Assembly: GCA_044229475.1 (NCBI GenBank)
Contig: JBGASW010000007.1
Coordinates: 62,054 to 126,053, forward strand
Origin: Thermoanaerobaculia bacterium
Lineage (GTDB): Bacteria > Acidobacteriota > Thermoanaerobaculia > UBA5066
Reading direction: 5' to 3'
DNA: 64,000 nt
In this document: positions 3,893 through 46,083 of the stretch, piece by piece
How the letters are laid out: each line of letters begins with the position of its first letter
Position numbering within the stretch: position 1 is the stretch's first letter
The notes under the pieces: generated by a model
The model's input: only the letters and a program-made list of their open reading frames with translations
Databases searched by the model: none
What the model was told of the DNA's origin: nothing
Program-made: the position numbers and the translations under genes

Positions 3893-4605
3893 GGAGACGA
3901 CGTTACCGCCCGGAGGCACGTTCGGAAACGACAGAGGCCGACCATCGGGAGCGCCCGGTCCAGGGCGCCGAGGACGGGGTAGGGGCTCGCGGAGTAGAAG
4001 AGGTCCTCCACGCGGAAGCCCGCCTCTTCGACGAGGCTCACCACGCGCGTGGCGGGGCGCACGGCGATGTGGTCCTCCTGCTGCAGGCCCGGCACGGCGG
4101 CCTTGATCCGCTCGGCCCAGTGGTCCCGGTTCGGCGTGTAGATCGCGAGGGCGCCGCCGGAAACGAGCGACCGGCGCGCGCTCTCGAGGCACGGGACGAG
4201 CACGTCGTCGAGGACGTGCTCGACGAAGTCGGCGAGGAGAACGACGTCGAACGGGCCCCCGGGTGCCGCCGCGAGATCCCGCGCGTCGGCCCTCTCGAAG
4301 CGGACGTTCGAGAGGCCGCGGGCGGCCTGCCCGGCGCGGGCGGCGTCGACTGCGACGCCTGCCGCGTCGATCCCCACGACCTCCGCGACGCACGGGGCGA
4401 GGAAGAACGCCGTGTCGCCGCGCGCGGAGCCGACCTCGAGGACCCGGAGGGACGGAGAGGGGCGGACGATCCGGAGCAGCGCCGCGTCGCGCTCCTCGTA
4501 CTTTCGCCGGTTCCGCAGGAACCAGTGCGGGCGGTACATCCGGCCGTAGTAGGCCGGCCCGTAGACGTCGGCGTTCGGCGCGAACTTCCCGGGTGCATCC
4601 GTCAC
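3889..4605 (-). CDS. Class I SAM-dependent methyltransferase
   Basis: Rossmann-like SAM-binding motif VLEVGSARGDTAFFLA and acidic loop VVGID; 4-nt overlap with downstream PhzF gene. Confidence 0.75.
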   Translation of the reverse strand: MTDAPGKFAPNADVYGPAYYGRMYRPHWFLRNRRKYEERDAALLRIVRPSPSLRVLEVGSARGDTAFFLAPCVAEVVGIDAAGVAVDAARAGQAARGLSNVRFERADARDLAAAPGGPFDVVLLADFVEHVLDDVLVPCLESARRSLVSGGALAIYTPNRDHWAERIKAAVPGLQQEDHIAVRPATRVVSLVEEAGFRVEDLFYSASPYPVLGALDRALPMVGLCRFRTCLRAVTSSP

Positions 4606-4646
4606 GCGATGAGTCTACGCATCTGAAGAGAGAGCCGGCCCCTAGA

Positions 4647-9197: not shown

Positions 9198-10270
9198 GGC
9201 GCGCCCTCCTCCTCCTCGCGGTCGCGTTCTTCCCCGGCTGCGGGCGCAAGCTGGCGCCCGAGGCGCCGCTGCTCGTGCTGCCGGCCCGCGTCGAGCCCGT
9301 GCGCATCTCGCAGGAGGCGGGCGACGTCGTGCTGCGCTTCCCGTATCCGTCGGTGACGAACTCCGGGTCGACGCTCACGAACCTCACGAAGGTCACCGTC
9401 GCGCGCGAGATCCAGAGCATCCGCGAGGGGCAGCGCATCCCGCCGCCGCCGGCCGACGCCGCCCAGCGCGAGAGCGAGGAGCGGACCTTCCGCGCGCGCG
9501 CCGAGACGGTCGCGGAGCTCTCCGCACGCGACCTCGACGCGGCCACGGTCGGCGCGGACCTCGTTTTCCGCGACCCGCTCGTGCCGCTCTACCGCGAGAA
9601 GCGGCTCGGGCGCGTCCTGCTGCGGTACGCCGTCACGGCGACCCGCGACAAGAAGCGCGTTTCCGAGCTCTCGCCCATCGCGTCGATCGTGCCCCGCGTG
9701 CCGCCGGACCGGCCGCTCCGCGTGATCCCGGCGGTCGAGGAGAACCGCGTCTGCCTCGACTGGTGGCCGCCCCCCGCGATGCTCGACGGCTCGAAACCCG
9801 TCGTCATCGCCGGATACGCGATCTACCGGCGAGACGCCTCCGAGGAGGAGTTCGAGGATCAGCCGATCGGCGTCGCGATCGGCGCCACGACGTACGTCGA
9901 CGCGACGACCCGGCCGGACCGCGCGTACGTCTACACGGTCCGCGCCGCCCCGGTCGCGGACGTCCCGCTCATCCTCGGCCCGGCCGCGGACCCCGTTGCC
10001 GTCTCCACGAAGGACGTCTTTCCGCCGCCGGCACCCGAGGGACTCCTCGTGCTCGCCGAGTCGGGCGGAACGCGGCTCGTGTGGAACCCGTCGCTCGCTC
10101 CGGACCTCGCGTTCTACCGCGTCTACCGGACGGACGGCGGGGCGCCGGCGCGGCTCGCGGACGGACTCAAGGACCCGCTCTTCTTCGACGCGGGGGCCTC
10201 GGGACGAACCTACGGCGTGACCGCCGTCGACAAGTCCGGCAACGAGAGCGCGCCGGGGACGGTGAAATGA
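9194..10270 (+). CDS. Hypothetical lipoprotein with fibronectin-III-like repeats
   Basis: Signal peptide + lipobox FFPGCG; two beta-sandwich-like repeats (WWPPP, LVWNPS); translationally coupled to hslU and dapF. Confidence 0.55.
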   Translation: MRRALLLLAVAFFPGCGRKLAPEAPLLVLPARVEPVRISQEAGDVVLRFPYPSVTNSGSTLTNLTKVTVAREIQSIREGQRIPPPPADAAQRESEERTFRARAETVAELSARDLDAATVGADLVFRDPLVPLYREKRLGRVLLRYAVTATRDKKRVSELSPIASIVPRVPPDRPLRVIPAVEENRVCLDWWPPPAMLDGSKPVVIAGYAIYRRDASEEEFEDQPIGVAIGATTYVDATTRPDRAYVYTVRAAPVADVPLILGPAADPVAVSTKDVFPPPAPEGLLVLAESGGTRLVWNPSLAPDLAFYRVYRTDGGAPARLADGLKDPLFFDAGASGRTYGVTAVDKSGNESAPGTVK

Positions 10271-11124
10271 AGATCTCGCCGCTCGGCGGCCTTCCGATCC
10301 GCTTCACGAAGATGAGCGGCGCGGGAAACGACTTTCTCGTCTGGGGCGAGGCCGTGAGCGTGGGTGCGGCCGAGGTCGCCGCGATCCAGCGCCTCTGCCG
10401 GCGGGGAACCGGCGTCGGGGCCGACGGCGTCCTCTTCGTCTTCCCGGACGGGCCCGGCCGCGTCTCGGCGGACTACCGCAACGCCGACGGCTCGGTGGGC
10501 CGCTTCTGCGGCAACGGCACGCGCTGCGCCGCGCGCTTCGCGGTCCTGAAGGGGCTCGCGCCGGAGAACCTGATCGTGAGGACCGGATGGGGCGACGTTC
10601 CCTCCCGCGTCGACGGCACGCGCGTGACGCTCCGGCTGCCCGAGCCCGTCGCGGTGGGCCGCGCGGTGTCCTCGCTCGACGCGTCCGGGGCGCTGGAGCG
10701 CGAGGCGTACGCCCTCACGGTCGGCGTTCCGAACGTGGTCGCCTTCGTCGCCGGGGGGATGGACGTCGCGGCGCTCGATTTCGCGCGCATCGGTCCGGCC
10801 CTGAGATACCACCCGGAACTGCGCGAGGGCGCGAATGCGGATGTCGCGCAGGTGCTCGGGCCGTCGCGGCTCCGCGTGCGGACCTGGGAGCGCGGGGTCG
10901 AGGCCGAGACGCTCGCGTGCGGCTCGGGCAACGTCGCGACGGCGGTCACGGCCGCGGCGCTCGGGCGCGTCACGCCGCCCGTGTCCCTCGAAACGCGCTC
11001 CGGGCAGGTCCTGCGCGTGGACTTCCGATTCGAGGGCGAGGTCGCGCGAGACGTCACCCTCGCGGGCGACGCCCGCGTCGTCTACGAGGGGACGCTGGAC
11101 CCGGGGGAATGGGAGGACGCATGA
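10267..11124 (+). CDS. dapF: Diaminopimelate epimerase
   Basis: FTKMSGAGNDFLV motif and two catalytic Cys (GNGTRC, CGSGN). Confidence 0.85.
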   Translation: MKISPLGGLPIRFTKMSGAGNDFLVWGEAVSVGAAEVAAIQRLCRRGTGVGADGVLFVFPDGPGRVSADYRNADGSVGRFCGNGTRCAARFAVLKGLAPENLIVRTGWGDVPSRVDGTRVTLRLPEPVAVGRAVSSLDASGALEREAYALTVGVPNVVAFVAGGMDVAALDFARIGPALRYHPELREGANADVAQVLGPSRLRVRTWERGVEAETLACGSGNVATAVTAAALGRVTPPVSLETRSGQVLRVDFRFEGEVARDVTLAGDARVVYEGTLDPGEWEDA

Positions 11125-11891
11125 GGTTCGTGAGGCTCGTGAACGGCGGCGCGCCCGCGTGGGCGCTGGCCCAGGAGGAGACGCTCGTCCCGCTCGCGGG
11201 AGCGCCGTGGGAGACGGGCGGCGTGCCGAAACCGTCCGGAGACGCGGTCCCGCGCCGCGGGGCGCGCCTCCTGCCCGCCGCCTCGCCGACGAAGATCCTC
11301 TGCATCGGGCGGAACTACCGCGCCCACGCGGCGGAGCTCGGCCACGAGGTTCCGAAGGAGCCGCTCGTCTTCTTCAAGCCGCCGTCGTCCCTCCTTCCGC
11401 ACGGCGGGACGGTCCGCCTTCCGCGGGAGAGCGCGCGCGTCGACTACGAGGGTGAGCTCGCGCTCGTGATCGGCCGGCGGGCCCGCCGCGTTGCGAAGGA
11501 GGACTGGCGGGACGTCGTCTTCGGCGTCACGTGCGCCCTCGACGTGACGGCCCGCGACCTCCAGAAGACGGACGGCCAGTGGTGGCGCGCGAAGGGCTTC
11601 GACACGTTCTGTCCGCTCGGTCCCGCCGTCGAAACGGACGTCGACCCGTCGACGCTCACCCTCCAGACCTTCGTCGACGGCGCGCCCCGGCAGAACGGGA
11701 ACACCGCGGACTTCATCTTCGACGTCGGGACGCTGATCGCGTGGACGTCGGCCGCGATGACGCTCGAGCCGGGGGACGTGATCCTCACGGGCACCCCCGA
11801 GGGCGTCGGGCCGCTCGCGGCCGGACAGACGGTCGAGGTGCGGATCTCCGGCGTCGGAACTCTCTCGGTTTCCGTGGCCGCCGAGGACTAG
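11121..11891 (+). CDS. Fumarylacetoacetate hydrolase (FAH) family protein
   Basis: FAH-fold pattern (ILCIGRNYRAHAAE ... VDYEGELALVIG ... GDVILTGTPEGVG). Confidence 0.8.
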   Translation: MRFVRLVNGGAPAWALAQEETLVPLAGAPWETGGVPKPSGDAVPRRGARLLPAASPTKILCIGRNYRAHAAELGHEVPKEPLVFFKPPSSLLPHGGTVRLPRESARVDYEGELALVIGRRARRVAKEDWRDVVFGVTCALDVTARDLQKTDGQWWRAKGFDTFCPLGPAVETDVDPSTLTLQTFVDGAPRQNGNTADFIFDVGTLIAWTSAAMTLEPGDVILTGTPEGVGPLAAGQTVEVRISGVGTLSVSVAAED

Positions 11892-13324
11892 CGGGTCCGG
11901 AGCGCGTCCAGCAGCTTCCGCGGGAACCCACCGAAGGCGCCGGACGACATCGAAACGACGACGTCGCCTGCGCGGAGTTCCGCGAGCAGCGCCGAGAGAA
12001 GAGCCTCAGGCGTCGGCGCCGTGAGCGCGGGCTTTCCGGCGGCGCGGAGCCGCGCCACGAGGGCGGAGGCGTCGAGAACGCCGGGCCCGCCCGGCTGCGC
12101 GAGCCGGGCGGCGTGGAACGGAGCCGCGAGGGCGACGGCGTCCGCCGCGCCGAGAGCCGCCGCGTACGGATCGAAGAAGTCCGCCCGGCCCGCCGTCATC
12201 GAGCGCGGCTCGAACGCGGCCCAGACGCGGCGTCCCGGGAAGCGGTTCTTCGCGCCGGCGACGGTGGTCGCGACCGCGGTCGGATGGTGGGCGAAGTCGT
12301 CGACGACCGTCACGCCCGCCTCGGTCCCGACCACCTCGAGGCGGCGCTTGACGCCGCGGAAGGACGCGAGTCCGCCCGCGAGCTGCGCCGGATGGAGGCC
12401 GAAGCCGAGAGCGGCGCCGAAGGCGGCGAGCGCGTTCGAGACGTTGTGCCGGCCGGAGAGCGGCGAGAGGACGGAATACGGCTCCTGGCCGGAACGGTGC
12501 ACCGTGAAGCGGGTGCCGCCCTCGCTCTCGGCGACTTGCGTCGCGAGGAGGTCCACGTCGGGCGCGCCGGCGGGCCTGGGCGCGACGCCGTAGAGGCGGA
12601 CGCGGGTCCGCGCCGCCGCGAGCACCTCGCGCACGTTCGGGTCGTCGCCGTTCGCGACGATCGCGCCGTCCTCGGGGACGAGCGCGACGCCGGCGCGAAA
12701 AGCGGCCTTCACGGCGGCGAGGTCCGCGTAGAGATCCGCGTGGTCGAATTCGACCGACGTGAGGACGAACGTCCGCGGCGCGTAGTGGAGGAACTTCGGT
12801 CCCTTGTCGGCGTAGGAGGTCGAATACTCGTCGCCCTCGACCACGAACGGCGCGCCGCCCCCGAGCGCCGCGGGACCCGGGAAGTTCGCGGGTTCGCCGC
12901 CCACGAGATAGCCGGGGTCGCGGCCCGCAGCGGCGAGGAGCCAGGCCGCGAGGGCGGTCGTGGTCGTCTTGCCGTGCGTTCCCGCGACCACGACGGGGTG
13001 CCGGCCGACGAGGATCTCGTCGTGGAGCGTTTCGGGCATCGAACGGACGTTGAGCCCCCGGCGCAGGGCCTCGAGGATCTCGGGGTTGTCCCGGCGGGCG
13101 AGGTTGCCCGCGACGACCTCGGACACGTCGGCGCCGACGTTCTCCGCGCGGAAGGCGGGCAGGACGGTGATCCCGAGAGCCGCGAGGCGATCGGACATCG
13201 GCGGATAGACGGGGCCGTCGGAGCCGGTCACGCGTTCGCCCCGGGCGAGGAGGAGGGAGGCCAGCGGCGTCATTGCGGTCCCCCCGACGGCGACCAGGTG
13301 AAACGTACGAGGGGCTGCGGACAC
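11888..13324 (-). CDS. mpl: UDP-N-acetylmuramate:L-alanyl-gamma-D-glutamyl-meso-DAP ligase (murein peptide ligase)
   Basis: Colinear with Mpl/MurC family: VTGSD, AGTHGKTTTTA, GDEYSTSYADKGPKFLHYAPRT, EFDHADLY. Confidence 0.8.
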   Translation of the reverse strand: MSAAPRTFHLVAVGGTAMTPLASLLLARGERVTGSDGPVYPPMSDRLAALGITVLPAFRAENVGADVSEVVAGNLARRDNPEILEALRRGLNVRSMPETLHDEILVGRHPVVVAGTHGKTTTTALAAWLLAAAGRDPGYLVGGEPANFPGPAALGGGAPFVVEGDEYSTSYADKGPKFLHYAPRTFVLTSVEFDHADLYADLAAVKAAFRAGVALVPEDGAIVANGDDPNVREVLAAARTRVRLYGVAPRPAGAPDVDLLATQVAESEGGTRFTVHRSGQEPYSVLSPLSGRHNVSNALAAFGAALGFGLHPAQLAGGLASFRGVKRRLEVVGTEAGVTVVDDFAHHPTAVATTVAGAKNRFPGRRVWAAFEPRSMTAGRADFFDPYAAALGAADAVALAAPFHAARLAQPGGPGVLDASALVARLRAAGKPALTAPTPEALLSALLAELRAGDVVVSMSSGAFGGFPRKLLDALRTR

Positions 13325-36389: not shown

Positions 36390-38027
36390 ATGACTCTGTC
36401 CCGGATTCCCTTCCACCGCCGGCTCGGCTTCAAGATCACGGCCACTGCGGCGGCGGCGATCCTCGTGCCCGTCGCGATCGTGGCGGCCGTCACGATCCGC
36501 GCCCAGCACGACGAGCTCGTGGCGCGCGCGCAGGGCAGCGCCGCGATCCTCTCGGAGACCGTCCGGAGCGCGACGCACGACTTCATGCTGAAGGACCAGC
36601 GCGAGGACGCGTACCGGATCGTCGAGATCGTCGGGCACGAGAGCCTCCGCGAGGGCAGCTCGATCGAGAGCGTCCGGATCTTCAACAAGCAGGGCGCCAC
36701 CGTGTACTCGACCGACCGCGCCGAGATCGGGCGGATCGCGGACAAGAGCGCCGGGGCCTGCGCGCCGTGCCACGGCGGGGCGGGCGCGCCGATCGCGAAC
36801 CCCGACCCCGCGACGCGCAGCCGGATCTCGGCGGTCGGCGACCGGCGCGTCCTCTCGTTCGTGACGCCGATCTACAACGAGGCCGCGTGCGCGGCGGCCG
36901 GCTGCCACGCGGCGCCGAAGGAGCAGCGCGTTCTCGGGCTCCTCGACGTCGCGCTCTCGCTGCGCGACGTGGACGACCGGCGCGCCGCCGCGACGTGGCG
37001 GATCGTCGGGCTGTCGCTTCTCGCGCTCGTCGCCCTGACGGCGCTCGTCTCGGCGATCGTCCGCGTCCTCGTGTTCCGTCCGGTCTCGGACATGCTCGCG
37101 GCGACGAAAGACCTCGCGCACGGCGGCACGCCGGCGCCCCTCCCGATCCGGTCGGACGACGAGCTCGGGATGCTCGGCCGCTCGTTCAACGAGATGAGCG
37201 ACTCGCTGCGCAAGGCCCGCGCGGAGCTCGAGCGTGCCGCGGACGGCCTCGAGCGCCAGGTGGAGGAGCGGACGGCCGCGCTCCAGCGGGCGCAGGAGGC
37301 GCTCGTGCAGTCCGAGAAGCTCGTCTCGCTCGGGACGCTCTCCGCGTCGATCGCCCACGAGATCAACAACCCGCTCGCGGGCATCCTGACGTTCGCGCGC
37401 CTCATGACGCGCACGCTCGAGTCGGGCGAGGTCGACGACGCGGCGCGCGCGGCCTGCCTGAAGAACCTCGGGCTGATTCAGCGCGAGACCGAGCGCTGCA
37501 CGCGAATCGTGCGGAGCCTCCTCGATTTCGCGCGGGCGCGCCCGATCGAGCTCCACGCGGTCGACGCCGTCGCCGCTCTCGACGAGGCCGTGTCGCTCAC
37601 GCAGCACAAGCTCCAGCTCGAGCAGGTCGCCGTGACGAAGGATCTCGACGGCGCGGCGGTCGTCCAGGGCGACTTCGGCCAGCTGCGGCAGGTCTTCGTG
37701 AACCTCATCCTGAACGCCTGCGACGCGATGCCGGGCGGCGGGACGCTCACCGTGACCGCGCGGAAGGTGGACGACGGGCGCACCGTGGAGATCGCCCTCT
37801 CGGACACGGGCGCGGGCATCGCGCCCGAGCACCTCTCGCGGATCTTCGACCCGTTCTTCACGACGAAGCAGATGGGCACGGGCCTCGGCCTCTCCGTCGC
37901 GTACGGCGTCGTCGAGAAGCACGGCGGCTCGATGAAGGCGGTCAGCCGCGTCGGCGCGGGGACGACGATGACGATCCGGCTCCCGCTCGCCGGGGAGACG
38001 GCGGCGCCGGCGGGCGCCGCCGCGTGA
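36390..38027 (+). CDS. Sensor histidine kinase with periplasmic c-type heme-binding sensor domain
   Basis: TM-periplasmic domain-TM-HAMP-HisKA (SIAHEINNPL)-HATPase_c (GTGLGLS); periplasmic domain has CAPCH (CxxCH) and CAAAGCH (Cx4CH) motifs. Confidence 0.8.
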   Translation: MTLSRIPFHRRLGFKITATAAAAILVPVAIVAAVTIRAQHDELVARAQGSAAILSETVRSATHDFMLKDQREDAYRIVEIVGHESLREGSSIESVRIFNKQGATVYSTDRAEIGRIADKSAGACAPCHGGAGAPIANPDPATRSRISAVGDRRVLSFVTPIYNEAACAAAGCHAAPKEQRVLGLLDVALSLRDVDDRRAAATWRIVGLSLLALVALTALVSAIVRVLVFRPVSDMLAATKDLAHGGTPAPLPIRSDDELGMLGRSFNEMSDSLRKARAELERAADGLERQVEERTAALQRAQEALVQSEKLVSLGTLSASIAHEINNPLAGILTFARLMTRTLESGEVDDAARAACLKNLGLIQRETERCTRIVRSLLDFARARPIELHAVDAVAALDEAVSLTQHKLQLEQVAVTKDLDGAAVVQGDFGQLRQVFVNLILNACDAMPGGGTLTVTARKVDDGRTVEIALSDTGAGIAPEHLSRIFDPFFTTKQMGTGLGLSVAYGVVEKHGGSMKAVSRVGAGTTMTIRLPLAGETAAPAGAAA

Positions 38028-38605
38028 GCGAGGTCCTCCTCCTGTGGATCGGAGTTCGGGACCCGGCCGCGGATCTCCTCGAAGGCGTTCGCCGGAGCGT
38101 GGCGCGCGAGTTCGAGATCGACGCCCGCGTGAGCGTCTCGGCCGAGCGCCCCGAGGACGCGTTCGACGCGCGCCGGGGTCAGCACTCGTCCACGCGGATC
38201 CTCGCGTGGCTGCAGGAGCGCCGGGAGGGGGCGCACCGGGTCCTCGGCGTGACGGACGCCGACCTCTTCATCCCGATCCTGACCTTCGTCTTCGGCGAGG
38301 CGCAGCTCGGCGGCCGCGCCGCGGTCGTCTCGACGGCCCGCCTCGGCGACACCCCGCTGATCCCCGGCGAGCCGGCGCGCATCGCCCTGCGCCTCCAGAA
38401 GGAGGCCGTGCACGAGCTCGGGCACACGTTCGGCCTCCTGCACTGCGCCGACGCGCGCTGCGCCATGGCGCGTTCGCCGAGCCTGAGACACGTCGACGAG
38501 AAATCCCCCGTCCTTTGCCGCGCCTGCCGCGCCCGCACCCGCGAACTCTCGGAGAACGGAGACGTCCATGAGCAAGAAGAACACGCGAATCCTGATCGTC
38601 GATGA
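38024..38605 (+). CDS. Archaemetzincin-like zinc metalloprotease (peptidase M54 family)
   Basis: HELGHTFGLLHC zinc motif plus CX4C...CX2C zinc-ribbon; GTG start overlapping HK stop (GTGA); 3' end overlaps RR start by ~38 nt. Confidence 0.65.
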   Translation: MSEVLLLWIGVRDPAADLLEGVRRSVAREFEIDARVSVSAERPEDAFDARRGQHSSTRILAWLQERREGAHRVLGVTDADLFIPILTFVFGEAQLGGRAAVVSTARLGDTPLIPGEPARIALRLQKEAVHELGHTFGLLHCADARCAMARSPSLRHVDEKSPVLCRACRARTRELSENGDVHEQEEHANPDRR

Positions 38606-39959
38606 CGAGGAGATCGTCCGGGAGTCCCTCTCGGGCTGGCTCGGCAAGGACGGCTACACGATCGGGACCGCGCCCGACGGGCTGACGGCCCTGAAGCTCA
38701 TGGAGGAGCACCCGTGGACGATCCTCCTCGTGGATCTCAAGATGCCCGGCATCGACGGGCTCGAGGTCCTGAGGCGCGTCAAGGAGCGCTGGAGCGACAC
38801 GGCCGTCCTCATCATGACGGCCTACGCCACCGTCGACACGGCCGTCAACGCGATGAAGGCCGGCGCGTTCGACTACGTCGTCAAGCCGTTCGACCCCGAG
38901 GAGGTGAGCCTCGTCGTCGAGAAGATCGTCGCGCAGCAGGCGCTCGTGCGCGAGAACGTGATCCTCCGGAAGGCCCTGAAGAAGGAGTACCGGTTCCACG
39001 ACCTCGTCACGAAGAGCCCGGCGCTTCTCGCGACGCTCGAGCTCGCGAAGACGGCCGCGCGCAGCCCGTCCACGGTCCTCGTCCTCGGGGAGAGCGGAAC
39101 CGGCAAGGAGCTCCTCGCCCGCGCGATCCACGCCGAGAGCCCGCGCAGCGGCAAGCCGTTCGTCGCGATGTCCTGCGCGGCCCTGACGGAGACGCTCCTC
39201 GAGTCCGAGCTCTTCGGGTACGAGAAGGGCGCGTTCACGGGCGCGAACGGCCGGCGGGAAGGGAAGTTCGAAGCGGCGAGCGGCGGCACGCTTTTCCTCG
39301 ACGAGATCGGCGACATCAGCCCGAAACTCCAGCTCGACCTCCTGCGCGTCCTCGAGGAGCGCCGGGTCACGCGGGTGGGCGGCACGGATTCGCTGCCCGT
39401 CGACGTCCGGATCATCGCCGCGACGAACCGGGACCTCCGGCGGGCGGTCGAGGAGGGCCGATTCCGGCAGGATCTCTTCTACCGCCTGAACGTCATCACG
39501 ATCACGCTCCTCCCGCTGCGCGAGAGGAAGGAGGACATTCCCCTGCTCGTCGACCGGCTTCTCGAACAGCTCTCGTCGGAGCTCAAGCGCCCCGCGGAGC
39601 GCGTCTCGCCCGAGGCGATGGCGATCCTCCTCGCCCACTCGTGGCCCGGGAACGTCCGCGAGCTGCGCAACGTCCTCGAGCGCGCGATCGTGGTCTCCGA
39701 GGGCCCCGTCCTCGAGGCCCGGCACCTCGGTCTCGTCCTCCAGGACGGCGCCGCGGCGCCCGTTCCCGAGCACCCGGCCTCGCTCGAGGAGATCGAGCGC
39801 CAGTACATCGGAAGCGTCCTCAAGCAGAGCGGCGGCAACGTGACGCAGGCCGCCCGCATCCTCGACATCGACCGCGTGACTCTCTACGCCAAAATTCGGA
39901 AGTACGGGCTGAAACGCGCGGAAGACGGGGAGTTCGAACCCGCAACGCCCGCCCGCTGA
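38568..39959 (+). CDS. Sigma-54-dependent Fis-family response regulator (NtrC-like)
   Basis: REC domain (ILIVDDE ... DLKMPG), AAA+ sigma-54 activator domain (GESGTGKE, GAFTGA, ESELFGYEKGAFTG), C-terminal Fis HTH. Confidence 0.9.
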   Translation: MSKKNTRILIVDDEEIVRESLSGWLGKDGYTIGTAPDGLTALKLMEEHPWTILLVDLKMPGIDGLEVLRRVKERWSDTAVLIMTAYATVDTAVNAMKAGAFDYVVKPFDPEEVSLVVEKIVAQQALVRENVILRKALKKEYRFHDLVTKSPALLATLELAKTAARSPSTVLVLGESGTGKELLARAIHAESPRSGKPFVAMSCAALTETLLESELFGYEKGAFTGANGRREGKFEAASGGTLFLDEIGDISPKLQLDLLRVLEERRVTRVGGTDSLPVDVRIIAATNRDLRRAVEEGRFRQDLFYRLNVITITLLPLRERKEDIPLLVDRLLEQLSSELKRPAERVSPEAMAILLAHSWPGNVRELRNVLERAIVVSEGPVLEARHLGLVLQDGAAAPVPEHPASLEEIERQYIGSVLKQSGGNVTQAARILDIDRVTLYAKIRKYGLKRAEDGEFEPATPAR

Positions 39960-39983: not shown

Positions 39984-40020
39984 ACGAACGCGCGGGCCTC
40001 CCGCGCGTTCTTTCGTTCTT
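39984..40020 (+). terminator. Rho-independent terminator after the sigma-54 regulator gene
   Basis: Perfect hairpin GAACGCGCGGG-CCTC-CCGCGCGTTC followed by TTTCGTTCTT. Confidence 0.6.
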
Positions 40021-40079: not shown

Positions 40080-40095
40080 TGGCCCGGTCCGTGCA
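40080..40095 (+). promoter_or_regulatory. Candidate sigma-54 (-24/-12) promoter TGGCCC-N5-GTGCA
   Basis: GG and GC dinucleotides at correct 12-nt spacing, ~15 nt upstream of first operon ORF; downstream of an NtrC-type activator gene. Confidence 0.35.
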
Positions 40096-40109: not shown

Positions 40110-40361
40110 ATGATGAACGACACCACGACCGCCTGCCCCTGGCTGAAGCAAGTCGTGATGCTCTATTGCGACGCCTGCCCGACGAAAAAGATGGTCCCGC
40201 GCGACCAGCTCGTGTCCATGGGTCCGTGCCTCGCCGGCTCCTTCTCGGAGTGCGCGATGTACCGCGAGATGGTCCAGAGGCTCGAGGCCGGCGCCGCCCG
40301 CAACGACGATGAAACGGAAGCGAGCCTCGCGGCCGCTTCCGGGAGGGAGGTCCCGTCATGA
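40110..40361 (+). CDS. Hypothetical Cys-rich small protein (83 aa)
   Basis: 5 Cys (C-x10-C-x2-C-x16-C-x7-C), coding codon bias, stop overlaps next start (ATGA). Confidence 0.4.
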   Translation: MMNDTTTACPWLKQVVMLYCDACPTKKMVPRDQLVSMGPCLAGSFSECAMYREMVQRLEAGAARNDDETEASLAAASGREVPS

Positions 40362-40441
40362 TCGCCACCGTTCCGCTCGCCGTTCTCGCCCTCCTGACGC
40401 TCCTCGCGATGGCCCGCCAGAGCCGGGTCCACGCCGCGTGA
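40358..40441 (+). CDS. Putative 27-aa hydrophobic membrane peptide (MIATVPLAVLALLTLLAMARQSRVHAA)
   Basis: Strong SD GGGAGGGAGG 7 nt upstream; single TM; followed by SD+start of Fe-S subunit gene. Confidence 0.3.
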   Translation: MIATVPLAVLALLTLLAMARQSRVHAA

Positions 40442-40457
40442 GAAGGAGAAAGACGCG

Positions 40458-41366
40458 ATGAACCTGAACCGCCGCAACCTTCTCAAGATCGCCGGCGCCG
40501 CCGGTGCGGGAGCCGCCCTCACCGGCGGTGCCCTCGCGTCGGCCACGACGCGAGGGGCCGCGAAGGACGCCGTCGGCGTTCTCGTCGACACGACGCGCTG
40601 CGTCGGCTGCCGCGGCTGCGAGGCCGCGTGCTCCGAAGCGAACGCGCTCGCCGCTCCCGACATGCCGGGCGACGACGCCGTGTTCGCCGCGCGCCGCCGG
40701 ACGGGACCCACGAGCTTCACGGTCGTGAACAAGTCGACCGCGAAGAGCCCCGCGGGCGAGGACCGCTACGCGAAGACGCAGTGCATGCACTGCGTGACGC
40801 CCGCCTGCGCGTCGGGCTGCGTCGTGAAGGCGCTCGAGAAGACGGCCTCGGGGCCGGTCGTGTACCACGAGGACCGCTGCCTCGGGTGCCGCTACTGCAT
40901 GATCGCGTGCCCCTTCAGCGTGCCGAAGTACGAGTACACGAAGGCGGCGCCCCTCGTGAAGAAGTGCACGTTCTGCGCGGCGCGCCAGGAGAAGGGCCTT
41001 CCGCCGGCCTGCACGGACGCGTGCCCCTCGGGCGCGCTCACGTTCGGCAAGCGGGCCGACCTCCTCGAAGAGGCCAAGACCCGCATCTACCAGAACCCGA
41101 CGAAGTACGTCCACGAGATCTACGGGGAGGACGAGGCCGGCGGCACGAGCTGGCTCTACATCTCCGACGTCTCCTCGGCGAGCCTCTCGCTCCCGCAGGA
41201 CATCGTGAAGAAGTCCTACCCCGAGATGGCCGACGGCGCGCTCTCGGCCGTCCCGTTCGTCGTGACCCTGTGGCCGCCGCTCCTCATGGGTCTCTACACC
41301 TTCAGCAAGCGGGTGGGCGACGTCGCCGGCCGCGAGAGCGCGCACAAGGGAGACGGCCATGAGTGA
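40458..41366 (+). CDS. Tat-exported 4x[4Fe-4S] ferredoxin-type subunit with C-terminal membrane anchor (HybA/PsrB/NrfC-like)
   Basis: Twin-arginine signal NRRNLLK; four Cys clusters (CVGCRGCEAAC, CMHCVTPACASGC, CLGCRYCMIACP, CTFC...CTDACP); C-terminal TM helix. Confidence 0.85.
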   Translation: MNLNRRNLLKIAGAAGAGAALTGGALASATTRGAAKDAVGVLVDTTRCVGCRGCEAACSEANALAAPDMPGDDAVFAARRRTGPTSFTVVNKSTAKSPAGEDRYAKTQCMHCVTPACASGCVVKALEKTASGPVVYHEDRCLGCRYCMIACPFSVPKYEYTKAAPLVKKCTFCAARQEKGLPPACTDACPSGALTFGKRADLLEEAKTRIYQNPTKYVHEIYGEDEAGGTSWLYISDVSSASLSLPQDIVKKSYPEMADGALSAVPFVVTLWPPLLMGLYTFSKRVGDVAGRESAHKGDGHE

Positions 41367-42582
41367 GACCTTCGACCGTGTGGCGGCTTCGGCCTTCCTC
41401 CGCGAAAAAGTCTTTCTCGGCATGGAGCCGAAGACGTACGCGAAGAGCCTCTTCACGAAGACGAACGCGATCTTCGCGGCGATCCTCGCCGTCGGCCTGC
41501 CCACGATGGCCTACAGGTTCTGGCACGGCATGGGCGCGGTGAGCAACCTCTCGCAGACGAACCCCTGGGGCATCTGGGTGGCGTTCGATATCGTGTGCGG
41601 CGTCGCGCTCGCCGCCGGCGGCTACACCGTGGCCGCGGCGGTCTACCTGTTCGGACAGAAGCAGTTCGCCCCGGTCCTCCGCCCCGCGATCCTCACGGGC
41701 TTCCTCGGCTACGCCTTCGTCCTCGTCGGCCTGCTCGTCGATCTCGGGCAGCCGTGGCGGCTCCCGTACCAGTTCTTCCTCACGCCCGGCACGACCGCCG
41801 TCATGTACGAGGTCGGCTGGTGCGTCTTCCTGTACCTGATGGTCCTCGCGCTCGAGTTCCTTCCGGCGGCGCTCGAGTGGCTCGGGATGACGAAAGTTCG
41901 CCGATTCATGAGCGCGATCTCGATCGGGATCATCGTCCTCGGCGTCACGCTCTCGACGCTCCACCAGTCCTCGCTCGGCGCCTTCTTCCTCATGTCGCCC
42001 GGCAAGCTCCACCCCCTGTGGTACTCGCCGTTCCTCCCGATCTTCTTCTTCGTGTCCTCGATCGCAGCGGGCATCGGGATGGTGATCTTCGAGAGCTCGG
42101 TCTCGCACCGGGCCTTCCAGGACCGGCTCGACCCCGAGGCGCACGTCGACATGGACGCGCTGCAGCTCGGGCTCGCCAAGGGCGGCGCGGTCGTCCTCTT
42201 CGCGTACTTCTTCATCCGCCTGCAGGGCCTCGTCGCGTCCGGCCGGTTCGACCTCCTCCTGACCGGGTGGGGCGCCTGGTTCGCGCTCGAGATGGTCGGC
42301 TTCGTCCTCCTGCCGTCGCTCCTCTTCGCCTTCGCCGTGAGGACCCAGAATGCGAAGCTCGCGCGCGCCGCCGGCGTCATGACGGTGCTCGGCGTCGTCC
42401 TCAACCGCTTCAACGTGTCTCTGATCGCGTTCAACTGGAACGTGCCGGACCGGTACGTTCCCGCGCTCGGAGAGATCGTCATCTCGATCACGATCGTCAC
42501 GCTCGGCGTCCTCGTGTTCCGCTGGATCGTCAACCGCATGCCCGTGCTCCGCGAGCATCCGGACTGGCGCGGCGCCCACTGA
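41359..42582 (+). CDS. NrfD/PsrC/HybB-family polytopic quinone-interacting membrane subunit
   Basis: 407 aa, ~10 TM helices, NrfD-family pattern; 8-nt overlap with Fe-S subunit gene. Confidence 0.85.
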   Translation: MSETFDRVAASAFLREKVFLGMEPKTYAKSLFTKTNAIFAAILAVGLPTMAYRFWHGMGAVSNLSQTNPWGIWVAFDIVCGVALAAGGYTVAAAVYLFGQKQFAPVLRPAILTGFLGYAFVLVGLLVDLGQPWRLPYQFFLTPGTTAVMYEVGWCVFLYLMVLALEFLPAALEWLGMTKVRRFMSAISIGIIVLGVTLSTLHQSSLGAFFLMSPGKLHPLWYSPFLPIFFFVSSIAAGIGMVIFESSVSHRAFQDRLDPEAHVDMDALQLGLAKGGAVVLFAYFFIRLQGLVASGRFDLLLTGWGAWFALEMVGFVLLPSLLFAFAVRTQNAKLARAAGVMTVLGVVLNRFNVSLIAFNWNVPDRYVPALGEIVISITIVTLGVLVFRWIVNRMPVLREHPDWRGAH

Positions 42583-42599
42583 AAGAGCGGAGAAGAAAC

Positions 42600-43265
42600 A
42601 TGAACGAAAGCAGCCTCCTCAGCCCGCACGCCACGAAGGCCCTCGAGTACCTGCTCGCGGTCTCGTACCTCCTGCTCTTCATCCCCTTCTGGCGCTTCGT
42701 GAACGGCGCGACGATCGCGCAATCCTTCGCGCTCGGATGGTTTCAGGTCCCCGAGAACGTCCACCTGCACCGCGGGCACTCGTGGGCCAAGACGTTCGGC
42801 GGCGCCGTCGCGGTCGGCCTGGACGACTTCGCCCACAAGCTGATCGGCCCGCTGGACGAGGTGCGGTTCCCCGCGGTCGGCACGCCGCTCCGGCAGGGCC
42901 AGAAGGCCTTCACGGTCGTCGCGGACGGCAAGCCCTTCGACGTCGTCTCGCCCGTGGACGGCAACGTCGTCGCGGTCAACGAGGTCGTGCACGCGCACCC
43001 GGCCGACGCCGTCCGCGATCCGTACGGAACGGGCTGGCTCCTGAAGGTCGAGCCGCGCTGGCTGACCGCGAACCTCAAGAACCTCGTCTCCGGCGACTCC
43101 GCCCGCCGCTTCCTGGATGCGGCCGCCCAGGCGCTCTCGGGCCGCATGAGCCCGGAGCTCGGCGTCGTCCTCCAGGACGGCGGCGCCCCGGTCCACGGCA
43201 TCGCCCGCGAAATCGACCCCGAGCACTGGGACGAGGTCGTGCGCCACCACCTGAAGGGCGAGTGA
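42600..43265 (+). CDS. Membrane-anchored glycine-cleavage-H (GcvH)-fold protein, lipoyl-Lys position conserved
   Basis: N-terminal TM helix then region colinear with GcvH (HRGHSWAK ... AVGLDDFAHKLIGPLDEV ... VVADGKPFDVVSPVDGNVVAVNE ... DPYGTGWLLKV). Confidence 0.65.
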   Translation: MNESSLLSPHATKALEYLLAVSYLLLFIPFWRFVNGATIAQSFALGWFQVPENVHLHRGHSWAKTFGGAVAVGLDDFAHKLIGPLDEVRFPAVGTPLRQGQKAFTVVADGKPFDVVSPVDGNVVAVNEVVHAHPADAVRDPYGTGWLLKVEPRWLTANLKNLVSGDSARRFLDAAAQALSGRMSPELGVVLQDGGAPVHGIAREIDPEHWDEVVRHHLKGE

Positions 43266-43275
43266 GGAGGACGCG

Positions 43276-43626
43276 ATGAAAGCCCGCATCCATTTCCTCG
43301 CGGCGACCCTCCTTCTCGCCCTTCTCTCGGCGACCCTCCTCGCGGGCGCGCTGCCGAACCTCCCGAAGGAGAAGGCGCTCCCGCAGGGCGACGGCAGCCC
43401 CGGCGTCGTCACCTTCCGCCACGACTCCCACGTCGACGCCTCGCGCCCCGACTGCACGACGTGTCACCCGACGCTCTTCCCCATCGTCAAACGCACCGCC
43501 TCTTCGGCCGCCCCCGCCGCGATCCGCCACGCCGACATGGAAAAAGGCAAGAGCTGCGGCTCCTGCCACGACGGCAAGAGCGCCCACGGCCTCGACGACT
43601 GCGGGACGTGCCACAAGGCCAAGTGA
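43276..43626 (+). CDS. Triheme c-type cytochrome, cytochrome c7/c3-like
   Basis: Signal peptide; three CxxCH (CTTCH, CGSCH, CGTCH); VTFRHDSH motif as in Geobacter PpcA. Confidence 0.8.
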   Translation: MKARIHFLAATLLLALLSATLLAGALPNLPKEKALPQGDGSPGVVTFRHDSHVDASRPDCTTCHPTLFPIVKRTASSAAPAAIRHADMEKGKSCGSCHDGKSAHGLDDCGTCHKAK

Positions 43627-43634
43627 GGTGACCC

Positions 43635-44333
43635 ATGACGCCTCTTGAGTTCCTCCAGCTCGCCGGCATCTTCCTCGCGGGTCTCGTCGTCCGCGCCCTC
43701 GCCTTCACGCTCGTCCTCGCGGTCTGCGCGCTCCCGATCCTCGCGGCCTGGGCGCTCTGGCGCGCCTGGCAGAAGCTGCGGGACCGCAGCATCGGCCTCG
43801 TGGACGTGGGCGGGCTCGAGCTCGCCGAGGCGCACCACTACGCCCCCGGCCACACGTGGCTCCAGCGGCGGGCGCGCGGCTCGGTCCGCGTCGGGCTCGA
43901 CGAGATCGCGGGCCGGCTCCTGCACGGGCCCACGAGCGTCACGCTCCCGAGGCCGGGCACCGTCCTGGCCGCCGGCCTCCCCGCCGCCACCGTGAGCTGC
44001 CACGGGCGCGCCGCCGCGATTCCGGCGCCCATCTCGGGCACGGTCGTCGCGACCAACCCGGCCGTCGTCCGCGACCCCTCGCTCCTCGAGGAGTCGCGCT
44101 ACCGGGACGGCTGGCTCTTCGCGATGAAGCCCGCGACGGCCGCGTTCCTGACGCTCCCGACCGGCGAGACCGCGCGCTCCTGGTTCAAGGACGAGACGGC
44201 GCGCTTCTCGCGCGCGCTCGAGACCGAGCTCGGCCTCCTCGCCGCGGACGGCGGCGAGCTCGTGGTCGAGGCGCCCGCGCTTCTCTCGGAGGAGAAGTGG
44301 CAGCGCCTCGTCTCGGAGTTCCTGAAGGGCTGA
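43635..44333 (+). CDS. Membrane-anchored GcvH-fold protein lacking the lipoyl lysine (Cys-His at equivalent site)
   Basis: Two N-terminal TM helices then GcvH-like region (YAPGHTWLQ ... VGLDEIAGRLLHGP ... SGTVVATNPAVVRDPSLL ... DGWLFAMKP); K replaced (VSCHGRAA). Confidence 0.6.
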   Translation: MTPLEFLQLAGIFLAGLVVRALAFTLVLAVCALPILAAWALWRAWQKLRDRSIGLVDVGGLELAEAHHYAPGHTWLQRRARGSVRVGLDEIAGRLLHGPTSVTLPRPGTVLAAGLPAATVSCHGRAAAIPAPISGTVVATNPAVVRDPSLLEESRYRDGWLFAMKPATAAFLTLPTGETARSWFKDETARFSRALETELGLLAADGGELVVEAPALLSEEKWQRLVSEFLKG

Positions 44334-44336
44334 CGC

Positions 44337-44792
44337 TCAGCGCTTGCCGAAGAGGCTGTCGAAGGCCGACCGCGCGCCGTCGGGCGTGTCGGCGGCCTTC
44401 GTGCCCGTGAGGTCCATGCTCACGACGGGCGCGTAGAACGTGCAGTCGTTCGCCCGCGACTTCGCCGGGATCGCGACCGGGACCGGCTGGCGGCACTGCG
44501 CGGGAGCTGCCCCGTCGAAGTGGCGGCACTGGCTGCATGCGTGGAGCGCGGCCCCGCACTTCCGGCAGACCGAGGCTTTCGTCACCTCGGCGTCGTTCTT
44601 CTCGCCGCAGGCCTTGCAGCGAAAGACTTCGTCGCGGTGGCGGTCCGCGCCGCGCCCGCGGGGCGCGCCTTCCAGCCGGGCGGGGCGGTCGGAGGAGAAC
44701 CCGCCGCCCCCGCCGGTGCCGCCAGAGCCACCCGTGCGCGCGCCGTCCTGATAGCCCTTCGAGCGGTACTTGCGATCACCCATCCGCATCAT
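44337..44792 (-). CDS. Hypothetical zinc-ribbon protein
   Basis: Gly-rich basic N-terminus, then CKACG...CRKCG...CSQCRHFD Cys pairs. Confidence 0.4.
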   Translation of the reverse strand: MMRMGDRKYRSKGYQDGARTGGSGGTGGGGGFSSDRPARLEGAPRGRGADRHRDEVFRCKACGEKNDAEVTKASVCRKCGAALHACSQCRHFDGAAPAQCRQPVPVAIPAKSRANDCTFYAPVVSMDLTGTKAADTPDGARSAFDSLFGKR

Positions 44793-44839
44793 TCTACGGT
44801 CCGGCGCGCGGGCCGTAGAATCCTCCGCCGAGGGACTCC

Positions 44840-45202
44840 ATGAGACTCCTCCTTCGCATCCTCATCAACGCGGCGGCCCTGTGGGTCGCGGCGTCGGTCG
44901 TGGACGGCATCCACGCCGGCGGGGCGGGCTCCATCCTCGCGGTCGCGGTCGTCTTCGGCGTCGTGAACGCGCTCGTGCGCCCGATCCTCAAGCTCCTGAG
45001 CTGCCCGATCATCTTCCTGACGCTCGGGCTCTTCACCCTCGTCCTCAACGCGCTCATGCTCATGCTCACGGCGTGGGCCTCCAGGCAGCTCGGGATCGAC
45101 TTCACGGTCGCCGGCTTCTGGCCCTCCGCCTTCCTGGGCGCGCTCATCGTCTCCATCGTCTCGACGGTCCTGTCCTGGTTCATCCCGGACAAGGCCGCGT
45201 GA
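44840..45202 (+). CDS. Small 4-TM membrane protein (phage-holin-4/DUF360-like)
   Basis: 120 aa, four TM helices, pattern of the YqgE/holin-IV family. Confidence 0.55.
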   Translation: MRLLLRILINAAALWVAASVVDGIHAGGAGSILAVAVVFGVVNALVRPILKLLSCPIIFLTLGLFTLVLNALMLMLTAWASRQLGIDFTVAGFWPSAFLGALIVSIVSTVLSWFIPDKAA

Positions 45203-45231
45203 TCCAACACCCGAAAAGGAGCTCTTTCCCC

Positions 45232-46083
45232 ATGCGCGTTCCGGTCACCCTGATGGCTCTCGTTCTCCTCGCCGGCTGCGGCAAGCAGCAGCCCGCGCTC
45301 GACGTGAAGACCGCGGCGCCCGCAAAGGCTCCCGCGGCGTCCGCGTCCGCCCCCGCGTCCGGCGTCATGCCCGCCGCGCCCGAAGCGGCGCTCGTCACCG
45401 TCTCCGGCACCGTCCTCGAGACGATGGACGCGGCCGAGTACACCTACATGCGCCTGAAGACCGCGACCGGCGAGACTTGGGCCGCGATCAACAAGACGAA
45501 GGTCGCGAAGGGCGACGCCGTCACGGTCACGAACGCGATGGTCATGGACGGCTTCCAGAGCAAGACGCTCAATCGCACGTTCGACCACATCCTCTTCGGC
45601 GTGCTCGCGACGCCCGGCGCCCCTGCGGCCGCGGCTCCCGCCGCACCCGCCGCGCCGATGGCGTCCGGCCACCAGCCGGCGGTCGCCCCCGCGCCCGCGA
45701 CGCAGGAGCAGATGGCCGCCCAGCACGGGCAGGCCGCGGGCGGCCCCGCGGACGCGCCGGACGTGAAGGTCCCGAAGGCCGAAGGGCAGAACGCGAAGAC
45801 GGTCGCGGAGCTCTGGGCGCAGCGCGCCTCGCTCAAGGGCAAGGAAGTGGCCGTGAAGGCCAAGATCGTGAAGGTCACGAACAGCGTCATGGGGAAGAAC
45901 TGGCTCCACGTGCGCGACGGCTCGGGCTCGAAGGCCGCGAAGGACAACGACCTCACGGTCACGACCGACGTGGTCGCGAAGGTGGGCGACGTCGTGACCG
46001 TGACCGGCACGGTCTCCGTCGACAAGGACTTCGGGGCCGGGTACGCGTACCCCGTCATCATCGAAAACGCGAAGCTGAAGTAG
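45232..46083 (+). CDS. Hypothetical lipoprotein with two tandem beta-domains
   Basis: Signal + lipobox LLAGCG; internal duplication (GDAVTVTNAMV / GDVVTVTGTVSV); SD AAAAGGAG. Confidence 0.5.
   Translation: MRVPVTLMALVLLAGCGKQQPALDVKTAAPAKAPAASASAPASGVMPAAPEAALVTVSGTVLETMDAAEYTYMRLKTATGETWAAINKTKVAKGDAVTVTNAMVMDGFQSKTLNRTFDHILFGVLATPGAPAAAAPAAPAAPMASGHQPAVAPAPATQEQMAAQHGQAAGGPADAPDVKVPKAEGQNAKTVAELWAQRASLKGKEVAVKAKIVKVTNSVMGKNWLHVRDGSGSKAAKDNDLTVTTDVVAKVGDVVTVTGTVSVDKDFGAGYAYPVIIENAKLK

Follow-up and report, generated by a model that had tools for sequence, protein, structure and literature searches.

An Hmc-like Fe-S/NrfD operon with membrane-anchored H-protein-fold proteins lacking the lipoyl-lysine and with predicted sigma-54 control

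A stretch of 64,000 nucleotides from a Thermoanaerobaculia bacterium (assembly GCA_044229475.1, contig JBGASW010000007.1, positions 62,054 to 126,053 of the forward strand; hereafter the window, 72% G+C) carries, at positions 40110-44333, an operon of seven genes designated o1 to o7. It combines an iron-sulfur (Fe-S) protein and an NrfD-family membrane subunit, both resembling components of the Hmc complex, with a cytochrome c7, a cysteine-rich protein, a small hydrophobic peptide, and two membrane-anchored proteins that adopt the fold of the glycine cleavage H protein (H-fold). The conserved unit is larger than the operon and comprises ten genes, in which a sensor histidine kinase, an archaemetzincin-like metallopeptidase of the M54 family, and a response regulator are followed by a sigma-54 promoter and then by o1 to o7. 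The preliminary description of this DNA had recognized seven co-directional, tightly packed open reading frames (ORFs), and their coordinates proved exact; its outline of the module was right, although it had overlooked both the regulatory genes and the connection of o1 with the H-fold proteins. All gaps and overlaps lie between -8 and +17 nt, the junctions from o1 to o7 being, in order, -4, +16, -8, +17, +10, and +8 nt, with o5 beginning 17 nt after o4. The genes of the operon are as follows (aa, amino acids; Tat, twin-arginine translocation).

o1, 40110-40361, + strand: 83 aa with 5 Cys, a cytoplasmic Cys-rich protein without signal peptide
o2, 40358-40441, + strand: 27-aa hydrophobic single-helix peptide whose start overlaps the o1 stop codon
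o3, 40458-41366, + strand: 302 aa, Tat-exported, C-tail-anchored four-cluster [4Fe-4S] ferredoxin, HmcB/HybA-like
o4, 41359-42582, + strand: 407 aa, NrfD-family membrane subunit, HmcC/HybB-like, with a presumed menaquinone site
o5, 42600-43265, + strand: 221 aa, N-terminal transmembrane (TM) helix, flexible linker, H-protein-fold domain, and helical C-terminal extension
o6, 43276-43626, + strand: 116 aa, triheme cytochrome c7, secreted, with a signal or anchor sequence at its N-terminus
o7, 43635-44333, + strand: 232 aa, paralogue of o5 anchored by a two-helix hairpin, with an H-fold domain

Distribution and regulatory unit

A profile search with o5-type proteins detected relatives in at least 342 species-representative genomes from about ten phyla. 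The carriers include Thermoanaerobaculia, Holophagales, Vicinamibacterales, Anaeromyxobacter (cultured strains among them, such as Anaeromyxobacter oryzisoli SG63 and Anaeromyxobacter sp. PSR-1, with loci L032 and L033), Syntrophus and Syntrophaceae, and Syntrophorhabdus, as well as Methylomirabilis, Nitrospinota, Rokubacteria, Gemmatimonadota, Bacteroidota, and Schekmanbacteria. Gene neighbourhoods were drawn from 80 loci, 58 of which had enough flanking DNA for the core genes to be counted. Adjacent Fe-S and NrfD genes were found in 52 of these 58 loci, hereafter the core loci; the other six are additional o5-type genes that stand alone in genomes of Anaeromyxobacteraceae. At least two H-fold genes are present in 49 of the 52 core loci, and o1 is present in 40. 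The co-conservation across related genomes that the preliminary description had called for as a check is thus evident. Some lineages have the genes in a different order, such as o1-o7-o3-o4-o5-o6, which argues that the linkage is functional and not merely inherited. The seven-gene set is found together far beyond chance and is syntenic across phyla.

The genes and elements that precede the operon in the window are listed below.

sensor histidine kinase, 36390-38027, + strand: Pfam HAMP, HisKA, and HATPase_c, the first gene of the regulatory unit
archaemetzincin-like metallopeptidase gene, 38024-38605, + strand: Pfam Peptidase_M54, 9.2e-19
sigma-54-dependent response regulator, 38568-39959, + strand: REC (receiver), Sigma54_activat, and HTH_8 domains, Pfam 1.1e-70
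terminator-like hairpin, 39986-40010, + strand: 11-bp stem with 9 GC pairs and a T-rich tail, ending the regulatory unit
sigma-54 -24/-12 promoter element, 40080-40094, + strand: TGGCCC-N5-GTGCA, 16 nt before the o1 start codon

The kinase gene is co-located with the operon in most loci. Ahead of its HAMP domain, the kinase contains two motifs of the haem c type, CAPCH at residue 124 and CAAAGCH at residue 167, and both the CxxCH and the Cx4CH are kept in 43 of 46 orthologues, suggesting a haem-c-containing sensor segment that is presumably periplasmic. A comparison of this segment with the PDB returned insignificant matches only, namely cytochrome c-L (E 0.04) and the sensor of a Geobacter haem chemoreceptor (3b47, E 0.28). 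The M54 gene overlaps the end of the kinase gene, at its stop codon, and the start codon of the regulator gene; it lies between kinase and regulator in 47 of the 52 core loci and is annotated as Peptidase_M54 in locus L001. A protease gene within a two-component operon is unusual. The sigma-54 response regulator, in turn, accompanies 49 of the 52 core loci.

Upstream of o1, the pattern TGGC-N8-TGC recurs in 41 of 49 loci, mostly 28-31 nt ahead of the ATG. Since the element in the window lies only 16 nt from the o1 ATG, the leader would comprise only about 5 nt, and the o1 mRNA, as predicted from the promoter position, would be nearly leaderless and devoid of a Shine-Dalgarno sequence; the promoter-to-o1 spacing is also kept in other loci. 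With a -24 GG/-12 GC element and a gene for an enhancer-binding protein nearby, the operon has the features expected of sigma-54 control, which is predicted here.

Downstream of the operon, the interval 44337-46083 contains a convergent gene for a 151-aa zinc-ribbon-like protein (- strand), a membrane protein of the Phage_holin_4_2 family (44840-45202, 9e-32), and a 293-aa putative lipoprotein that matches no Pfam family. Genes for the holin-family protein and the putative lipoprotein also lie near the operon in L001, arranged differently, and no gene for a redox partner is found among these downstream neighbours.

The redox core and its known relatives

The domain assignments that the preliminary description had made for o3 to o7 were all confirmed by profile searches with Pfam and NCBIfam. 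The o3 protein matches TAT_signal (2.6e-5, 24.3 bits against a threshold of 22.7) and Fer4_11 (5e-19, 68.8 bits), and has 16 Cys forming four [4Fe-4S] motifs and one C-terminal TM segment at residues 261-279. A twin-arginine signal, 16 Cys, and a C-terminal TM segment are the features expected of a HybA/FdnH-type subunit, and o3 is predicted to be one. Its best curated family is HmcB (NF045715), with 353.3 bits, below the cut-off of 420, over residues 4-295 aligned to positions 1-294 of 307. HybA follows with 232.7 bits against a cut-off of 263, and QrcC reaches 65 bits against 400. The nearest solved structure is FdnH (1kqf_B, 9e-33).

The o4 protein, with about ten TM segments, matches NrfD (PF03916) at 6e-21, with 75.8 bits against a gathering score of 25.8. 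Its best curated family is HmcC (NF045714), matched over the full length with 519.4 bits, below the cut-off of 550, and the next are HybB (281.4 bits against 450) and QrcD (90.8 bits against 570). Of 15 orthologues of o4 taken from the most divergent loci, all 15 match HmcC, and no other matched family gives a better E-value. Subunits of the NrfD family have been described as lacking cofactors; o4 shows no CxxCH motif on inspection, and a search of its sequence against the PDB returned no match at E <= 0.001. The third redox protein, o6, contains three CxxCH motifs within about 70 residues and matches both cytochrome c7 models, Cytochrome_C7 (PF14522; 1.5e-14, 54.0 bits against 24.8) and TIGR04257 (67.8 bits against 40).

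The preliminary description had assigned the Fe-S and NrfD proteins to a quinone-coupling module, to which their best family scores, HmcB/HmcC-like, correspond. It had also recorded the lack of a molybdopterin catalytic subunit, and the operon indeed encodes neither that nor a hydrogenase or any other catalytic subunit. No QrcB-like ORF was found, hydrogenase genes are missing from the operon and from the syntenic loci, and neither a NarI-like cytochrome b (HmcE) nor a CCG/HdrD-like protein (HmcF) is encoded by any ORF at 36-49 kb of the window or in L001. The triheme cytochrome had been put forward as the likely electron partner. It is the obvious periplasmic partner in this operon; however, a c7 gene is present in only 37 of the 52 core loci, which makes it accessory and places it outside the invariant core.

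The closest known systems are Hmc, Nhc, and Ohc of Desulfovibrio, which likewise combine a multihaem cytochrome c on the periplasmic side with a four-cluster ferredoxin, exported by Tat and anchored by its tail, and with an NrfD-type subunit that has no cofactor. HmcD of the Hmc complex has been described as "a hydrophobic peptide" (10.1101/2023.11.02.564894), and a single-helix gene, here o5, follows the NrfD gene just as hmcD follows hmcC. Nhc represents a simplified Hmc without hmcE and hmcF (PMC4215793), and complexes of the Ohc type, which lack the cytoplasmic CCG protein, have been proposed to pass periplasmic electrons to quinone (PMC4287179); the operon described here likewise has no cytochrome b and no CCG/HdrD-type cytoplasmic subunit. 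The differences are nevertheless considerable. The scores of o3 (353 against 420) and o4 (519 against 550) fall below both equivalog cut-offs, and the cytochrome is a 3-haem c7, whereas the cytochromes of the known complexes carry 16 haems (HmcA), 9 haems (NhcA), or 8 haems. Unlike in Hmc, the helix encoded after the NrfD gene bears an H-protein-fold domain that is predicted to be cytoplasmic, and the operon adds at least one further H-fold paralogue (up to a fourth in some loci) as well as the 4-Cys protein and the peptide of 27 aa. In contrast to those of Hmc and Nhc, the hosts are mostly not sulfate reducers, and the operon has its own predicted sigma-54 two-component control.

The HybAB pair of Escherichia coli hydrogenase-2 and the QrcCD pair of the Desulfovibrio Qrc complex represent the same dimeric Fe-S/NrfD module and belong, like o4, to the 10-helix clade. 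In this HybB/QrcD/HmcC clade, menaquinone would be reduced near the periplasm while the protons come from the cytoplasm, which has been shown for QrcD and proposed for HybB and HmcC (PMC6303296). The operon differs from these systems in having no hydrogenase genes, no QrcB-type molybdopterin-like subunit, and scores below the family cut-offs, and no H-fold or Cys-rich partners have been described for Hyb or Qrc. [quoted passage not shown] The two-gene pairing beside c-type cytochromes is the same here, whereas the modules of that survey have octahaem cytochromes and no conserved flanking genes, and H-fold, Cys-rich, and regulator genes are not mentioned in it.

The accessible literature on GcvH or glycine cleavage together with NrfD-type, HybA, or Hmc complexes yielded no described association with membrane-anchored H-fold subunits, in agreement with the preliminary description, which had recognized no such complex. 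The redox core is of the known HmcBC/HybAB/QrcCD kind, and the accessory module attached to it is widespread, conserved, and undescribed.

H-fold proteins and their cysteine-rich partner

Both o5 and o7 are recognized by the Pfam family GCV_H above its gathering score (1.9e-16 and 2e-17, respectively), and fold-level detection also supports the H-protein fold, so that the similarity to GcvH, whose failure in profile searches would have undone the earlier assignment, holds on both counts. The two proteins are 32% identical to each other (BLASTP 8e-24), their C-terminal extensions included, and both families keep the core motifs of the H protein together with an invariant DGG...W in the extension. 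An AlphaFold2 model of o5 (predicted local distance difference test, pLDDT, 86.6) consists of a 28-residue helix at 9-36, a disordered linker, the H-fold domain, and a helical extension at 155-218, for which no structural match was found.

Public annotation labels o5 and o7 "glycine cleavage system protein H", yet they differ from GcvH in several respects. The lysine of the ESVK motif aligns to Gly in both proteins in a HMMER alignment to Thermus thermophilus GcvH, and among 153 paralogues from the 80 loci this column is Lys in only 6 (1/79, 4/60, 0/11, and 1/3 in the four paralogue types). At the following position, o5-type proteins often have Lys and otherwise Arg or Gln; among the 60 o7/C-type proteins, 46 have Arg there, and others have Gln, Gly, or Tyr. 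With the lipoyl-lysine lost, the H-fold domains of o5 and o7 are not cofactor carriers. Moreover, they are anchored in the membrane, have the DGG...W extension of about 45 residues, occur with 4-Cys fusion partners, and are not linked to gcvT, gcvP, or lipoate ligase; no gene for a lipoyl ligase, gcvT, gcvP, or E3 was seen in the loci inspected. Against the GcvH equivalog TIGR00527, they score 54.3 and 50.5 bits, far from the cut-off of 115.85, and matches to NF045810, a Desulfovibrio "GcvH-related protein", are weak (24-39 bits against 150) and do not place them in that family. They presumably differ in the same way from the lipoate-binding GcvH-like protein LbpA of sHdr systems and from GcvH-L. 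The likeness to the cofactor-less barrel-sandwich domains of NqrA and RnfC is distant and confined to the level of the fold, since the complexes are unrelated and no H-protein-specific similarity is present.

The membrane helix of o5 ranks among the best-conserved parts of the entire system. Between residues 13 and 32, it has 13 positions conserved at 89% or more, nine of them at 90% or more: in 54 sequences, Y17, F27, and P29 are invariant, K13, E16, L24, L26, W31, and R32 are conserved in at least 90%, and A14, A20, and F30 in 89%. Such conservation in a helix without cofactor ligands suggests tight packing against a membrane partner. The linker between helix and domain is flexible, variable in length, and often rich in Ala, Pro, and Arg in the o5 type, and short and of constant length in o7. 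The o5-type protein P0100, encoded directly after an HmcC-like gene, has a weak precomputed Pfam match to PF28260 ("DVU_0533"), the single case among about 240 proteins listed. A chance weak match to precisely this family among about 25,000 is unlikely. DVU_0533 is a protein that we take to be HmcD, and the o5 helix, which occupies the gene position of HmcD, may share its ancestry.

The distribution of charges indicates on which side of the membrane the H-fold domains lie. Within the 15 residues before the helices, the o5 and o7 families have 0-1 Lys or Arg, and within the 15 residues after them, the o5 type has 1-4 (with more in the linker) and the o7 type 3-7. In the window, the two-helix hairpin of o7 is followed by the basic stretch RAWQKLRDRS, and a third paralogue type begins with Met, then a helix, and then RRKxxxR. 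The same subfamily of H-fold and DGG extension is also found without TM segment or signal peptide, in the form of fusions: to one or two o1-type modules (L060, L074, and L083), to a distinct 4-Cys module, C.WM...C......C..C, in 11 loci, to an acetyl-CoA-synthetase-like enzyme in L059, and, in P0365, to both a receiver domain and an o1 module. The latter is the sole receiver fusion among the 150 representatives listed. These charges and TM-less fusions lead to the prediction that the H-fold domains of o5 and o7 lie in the cytoplasm, across the membrane from the Fe-S protein and the cytochrome, with o5 oriented N-out and domain-in. Neither the C.WM...C......C..C module nor the o1-type Cys module matched a Pfam family, and in NCBIfam scans of full-length fusion proteins only the H-fold part was matched, or the receiver domain in P0365.

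The o1 protein provides a further link to the H-fold proteins. It matched no Pfam or NCBIfam family and is 100% identical to a "hypothetical protein" of a metagenome-assembled genome (MAG) of Thermoanaerobaculia (Acidobacteriota); C9, C20, C40, and C48 are conserved throughout its family. A search of 1.84 billion representative proteins yielded 171 clusters of relatives, most of them stand-alone proteins of 60-110 aa, and all 10 of the 10 longer family members tested are fused to GCV_H domains. In this sample, the o1 module thus occurs only alone or with this H-fold subfamily, which constitutes classical fusion evidence for an interaction. The C-terminal GREVPS of o1 (window 40340-40361) is almost invariant among close relatives, likely because the same DNA holds the ribosome-binding site and start codon of o2, and 40 of 44 loci have a hydrophobic ORF of 22-30 aa where o2 lies in the window.

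Several variants of these proteins and loci were also observed. P0354 joins an o1 module, two C.WM...C......C..C modules, and an H-fold domain. An operon of a Deltaproteobacteria MAG (L059, about 9581-12058, + strand) encodes an 825-aa AMP-forming acetyl-CoA-synthetase-like protein with the H-fold and DGG extension at its C-terminus; this fusion occurs in 1 of 80 loci, its synthetase identity was read by eye, and its H-fold domain also lacks the lysine. Operons of the Syntrophaceae, Syntrophorhabdus, and Gemmatimonadota types (L038, L043, L048, L059, L064, L065, L067, L077, L078, L079, and L084) encode three or four H-fold paralogues each but lack a c7 gene within the operon itself. Two of them have cytochrome-like matches upstream on the opposite strand, and most are followed by a kinase and a regulator, some on the opposite strand. 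One paralogue of these operons has a TM-less N-terminus with the pattern KC.WM..G...YKLC.....CE.CP, for which no Pfam match was obtained.

In Anaeromyxobacteraceae, stand-alone o5-type genes lie far from Fe-S and NrfD genes (L034 at 8001-8726, L055 at 4369-5082 and 8001-8717, and further copies in L063, L066, L068, L071, and L080), and their products keep the same conserved helix with long Ala/Pro/Arg-rich linkers. Anaeromyxobacter oryzae Red232 has two such copies 3 kb apart. A JGI metagenome contig (L002, 3204-7278) carries the operon without c7, followed by genes for paralogous membrane proteins of 151 and 155 aa and trailed by those for a multihaem cytochrome c of 363 aa, a cytochrome b of the Ni_hydr_CYTB family, and an M56 peptidase resembling BlaR1. 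Beside an orphan o5-type gene of A. oryzae, a 157-aa protein (L055, 5280-5753) is, by eye, loosely like the 151/155-aa pair.

Interpretation and alternative explanations

The reading that we favour, and consider fairly probable, is that the operon encodes a sigma-54-controlled cytochrome c:menaquinone oxidoreductase of the Nhc/Hmc type, on which H-fold and 4-Cys proteins form a new cytoplasmic cap without a redox function. Homology is the basis for inferring the electron path and the coupling to quinone. The triheme c7 (o6), or another periplasmic partner where c7 is absent, would exchange electrons with o3, and this ferredoxin, by homology to HmcB and HmcC, would wire the cytochrome to a menaquinone site in o4. 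Reduction of the quinone with protons from the cytoplasm would then be electrogenic, by analogy with QrcD, HybB, and HmcC. The helices of o2, o5, and o7 may pack against o4, and those of o5 and o7 would tether the H-fold domains to the cytoplasmic face, where together with o1 they would form the cap. The latter is envisaged as serving structure or regulation where o4 opens to the cytoplasm, possibly dependent on Cys residues or a metal through o1. No His is present in the membrane helices of o2, o5, or o7; given also the lack of a cytochrome b or a CCG protein and the cofactor-less nature of NrfD subunits, the cap lies most likely off the electron path, and transmembrane electron transfer to it was rejected as a candidate mechanism on these grounds.

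Several points weigh against this reading. The proteins o1, o2, o5, and o7 are putative subunits of the complex, and the structural or regulatory role of the cap is a hypothesis. The c7 gene is absent from 15 of the 52 core loci, o3 and o4 stay below the NCBI equivalog cut-offs for HmcB and HmcC, and the link to HmcD is the one weak PF28260 match mentioned above. The predicted topology derives from the positive-inside rule and from the fusions, and the charge bias of o5 in the window is small (K13 versus R32). Putative metal binding by o1 is deduced from its four conserved Cys, and a model of the protein built with 26 close relatives has a pLDDT of 47.6 and is unusable.

Another explanation, to which we assign a low probability, is that the system is a transmembrane signalling device instead of, or besides, a respiratory enzyme. 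The Fe-S/NrfD pair would sense the redox state of the periplasm or of the quinone pool, and the H-fold and 4-Cys proteins would relay it to the neighbouring two-component system, possibly by docking to the kinase or through cleavage of the H-fold and 4-Cys modules by the M54 peptidase. Lipoyl domains dock to pyruvate dehydrogenase kinases of the GHKL type in a comparable manner. The operon is nearly always linked to the kinase-M54-regulator unit, with the regulator and M54 frequencies given above, P0365 fuses a receiver domain to o1 and H-fold modules, and the sigma-54 promoter is directly followed by o1, all of which is consistent with signalling. However, the kinase already possesses a conserved haem-motif sensor domain, a 16-Cys four-cluster ferredoxin and a 10-helix HmcC-like subunit make up a standard catalytic quinone module, and the receiver fusion is a single case.

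Alternatively, the cytoplasmic proteins could be assembly or Tat-proofreading factors for the exported Fe-S subunit, and not permanent subunits, which appears quite unlikely. Chaperones such as FdhE, HybE, and NapD serve other Tat-exported redox enzymes in this way. In favour of such a role, o3 is a Tat substrate whose closest solved relative is FdnH, the enzyme containing FdnH needs the Cys-rich cytoplasmic protein FdhE for its assembly, and o1, the product of the first gene of the operon, is itself small, cytoplasmic, and endowed with four conserved Cys. A chaperone function, however, does not fit the o5 and o7 proteins, which are membrane proteins with extremely conserved helices, pointing to stable packing on a membrane partner. 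Nor does it fit the presence of up to four H-fold paralogues per operon, and Pfam and NCBIfam scans showed no similarity to known chaperone families.

The preliminary description had suggested that the H-fold proteins carry a swinging-arm cofactor, and it is improbable that they are membrane-tethered lipoylated or acylated carriers that shuttle a cofactor or a substrate from the redox module to another enzyme or back. The H-protein fold is genuine, the flexible and variable linker of the o5 type is reminiscent of those in lipoyl domains, the position just past the canonical lysine has a basic residue (in this type often Lys), and the L059 operon encodes the synthetase-like enzyme fused to the same H-fold subfamily. 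This suggestion nevertheless fails on the near-complete loss of the canonical lysine, which extends to the fused domain of L059, and on the variation at the following position, which leaves no conserved modifiable residue. The domains are, in addition, predicted on the cytoplasmic side, whereas the redox centres are periplasmic, and the lipoylation and glycine cleavage genes named above are missing from the loci inspected. A coincidental placement of ordinary glycine cleavage H genes beside an Hmc-like module, as the public annotation would imply, is refuted by the TM anchors, the missing lipoyl-lysine, the scores far below the GcvH equivalog cut-off, the translational coupling in an operon without gcvT or gcvP, and the co-occurrence with Fe-S and NrfD genes across phyla and in permuted order.

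A further-reaching proposal can be made for the new part, one that we regard as possible but rather doubtful. The H-fold domains with their DGG...W extension and the 4-Cys modules may form a new kind of cytoplasmic module for NrfD-type quinone complexes. It could gate the cytoplasmic route by which protons reach the quinone site, depending on Cys residues or a metal, or it could act as a transmembrane relay of the quinone or periplasmic redox state to the sigma-54 two-component system and the M54 peptidase. If the cap does serve as a gate or relay, this would be a new function of the H-protein fold and a new answer to the question of how NrfD subunits communicate with the cytoplasm.

Fe-S/NrfD pairs constitute the most widespread quinone-coupling module of anaerobic respiration, and how their cofactor-less NrfD subunits conserve energy, together with the events on their cytoplasmic face, is still debated. 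In the system described here, the NrfD subunit would have acquired dedicated cytoplasmic partners built from a cofactor-less H-protein fold, and what NrfD-type complexes do on their cytoplasmic side thereby becomes accessible to tests. For bioenergetics, the surprise lies in putative cofactor-less H-fold subunits on an NrfD complex and in their broad distribution, the mechanism of the novel part being hypothetical. Hundreds of genes labelled "glycine cleavage system protein H" are, accordingly, something else. The analysis also defines a ten-gene regulon, composed of a haem-motif kinase, an archaemetzincin, a sigma-54 activator, and the seven-gene operon, in abundant anaerobes of soil and sediment, and since cultured Anaeromyxobacter strains carry it, the regulon is within reach of experiments.

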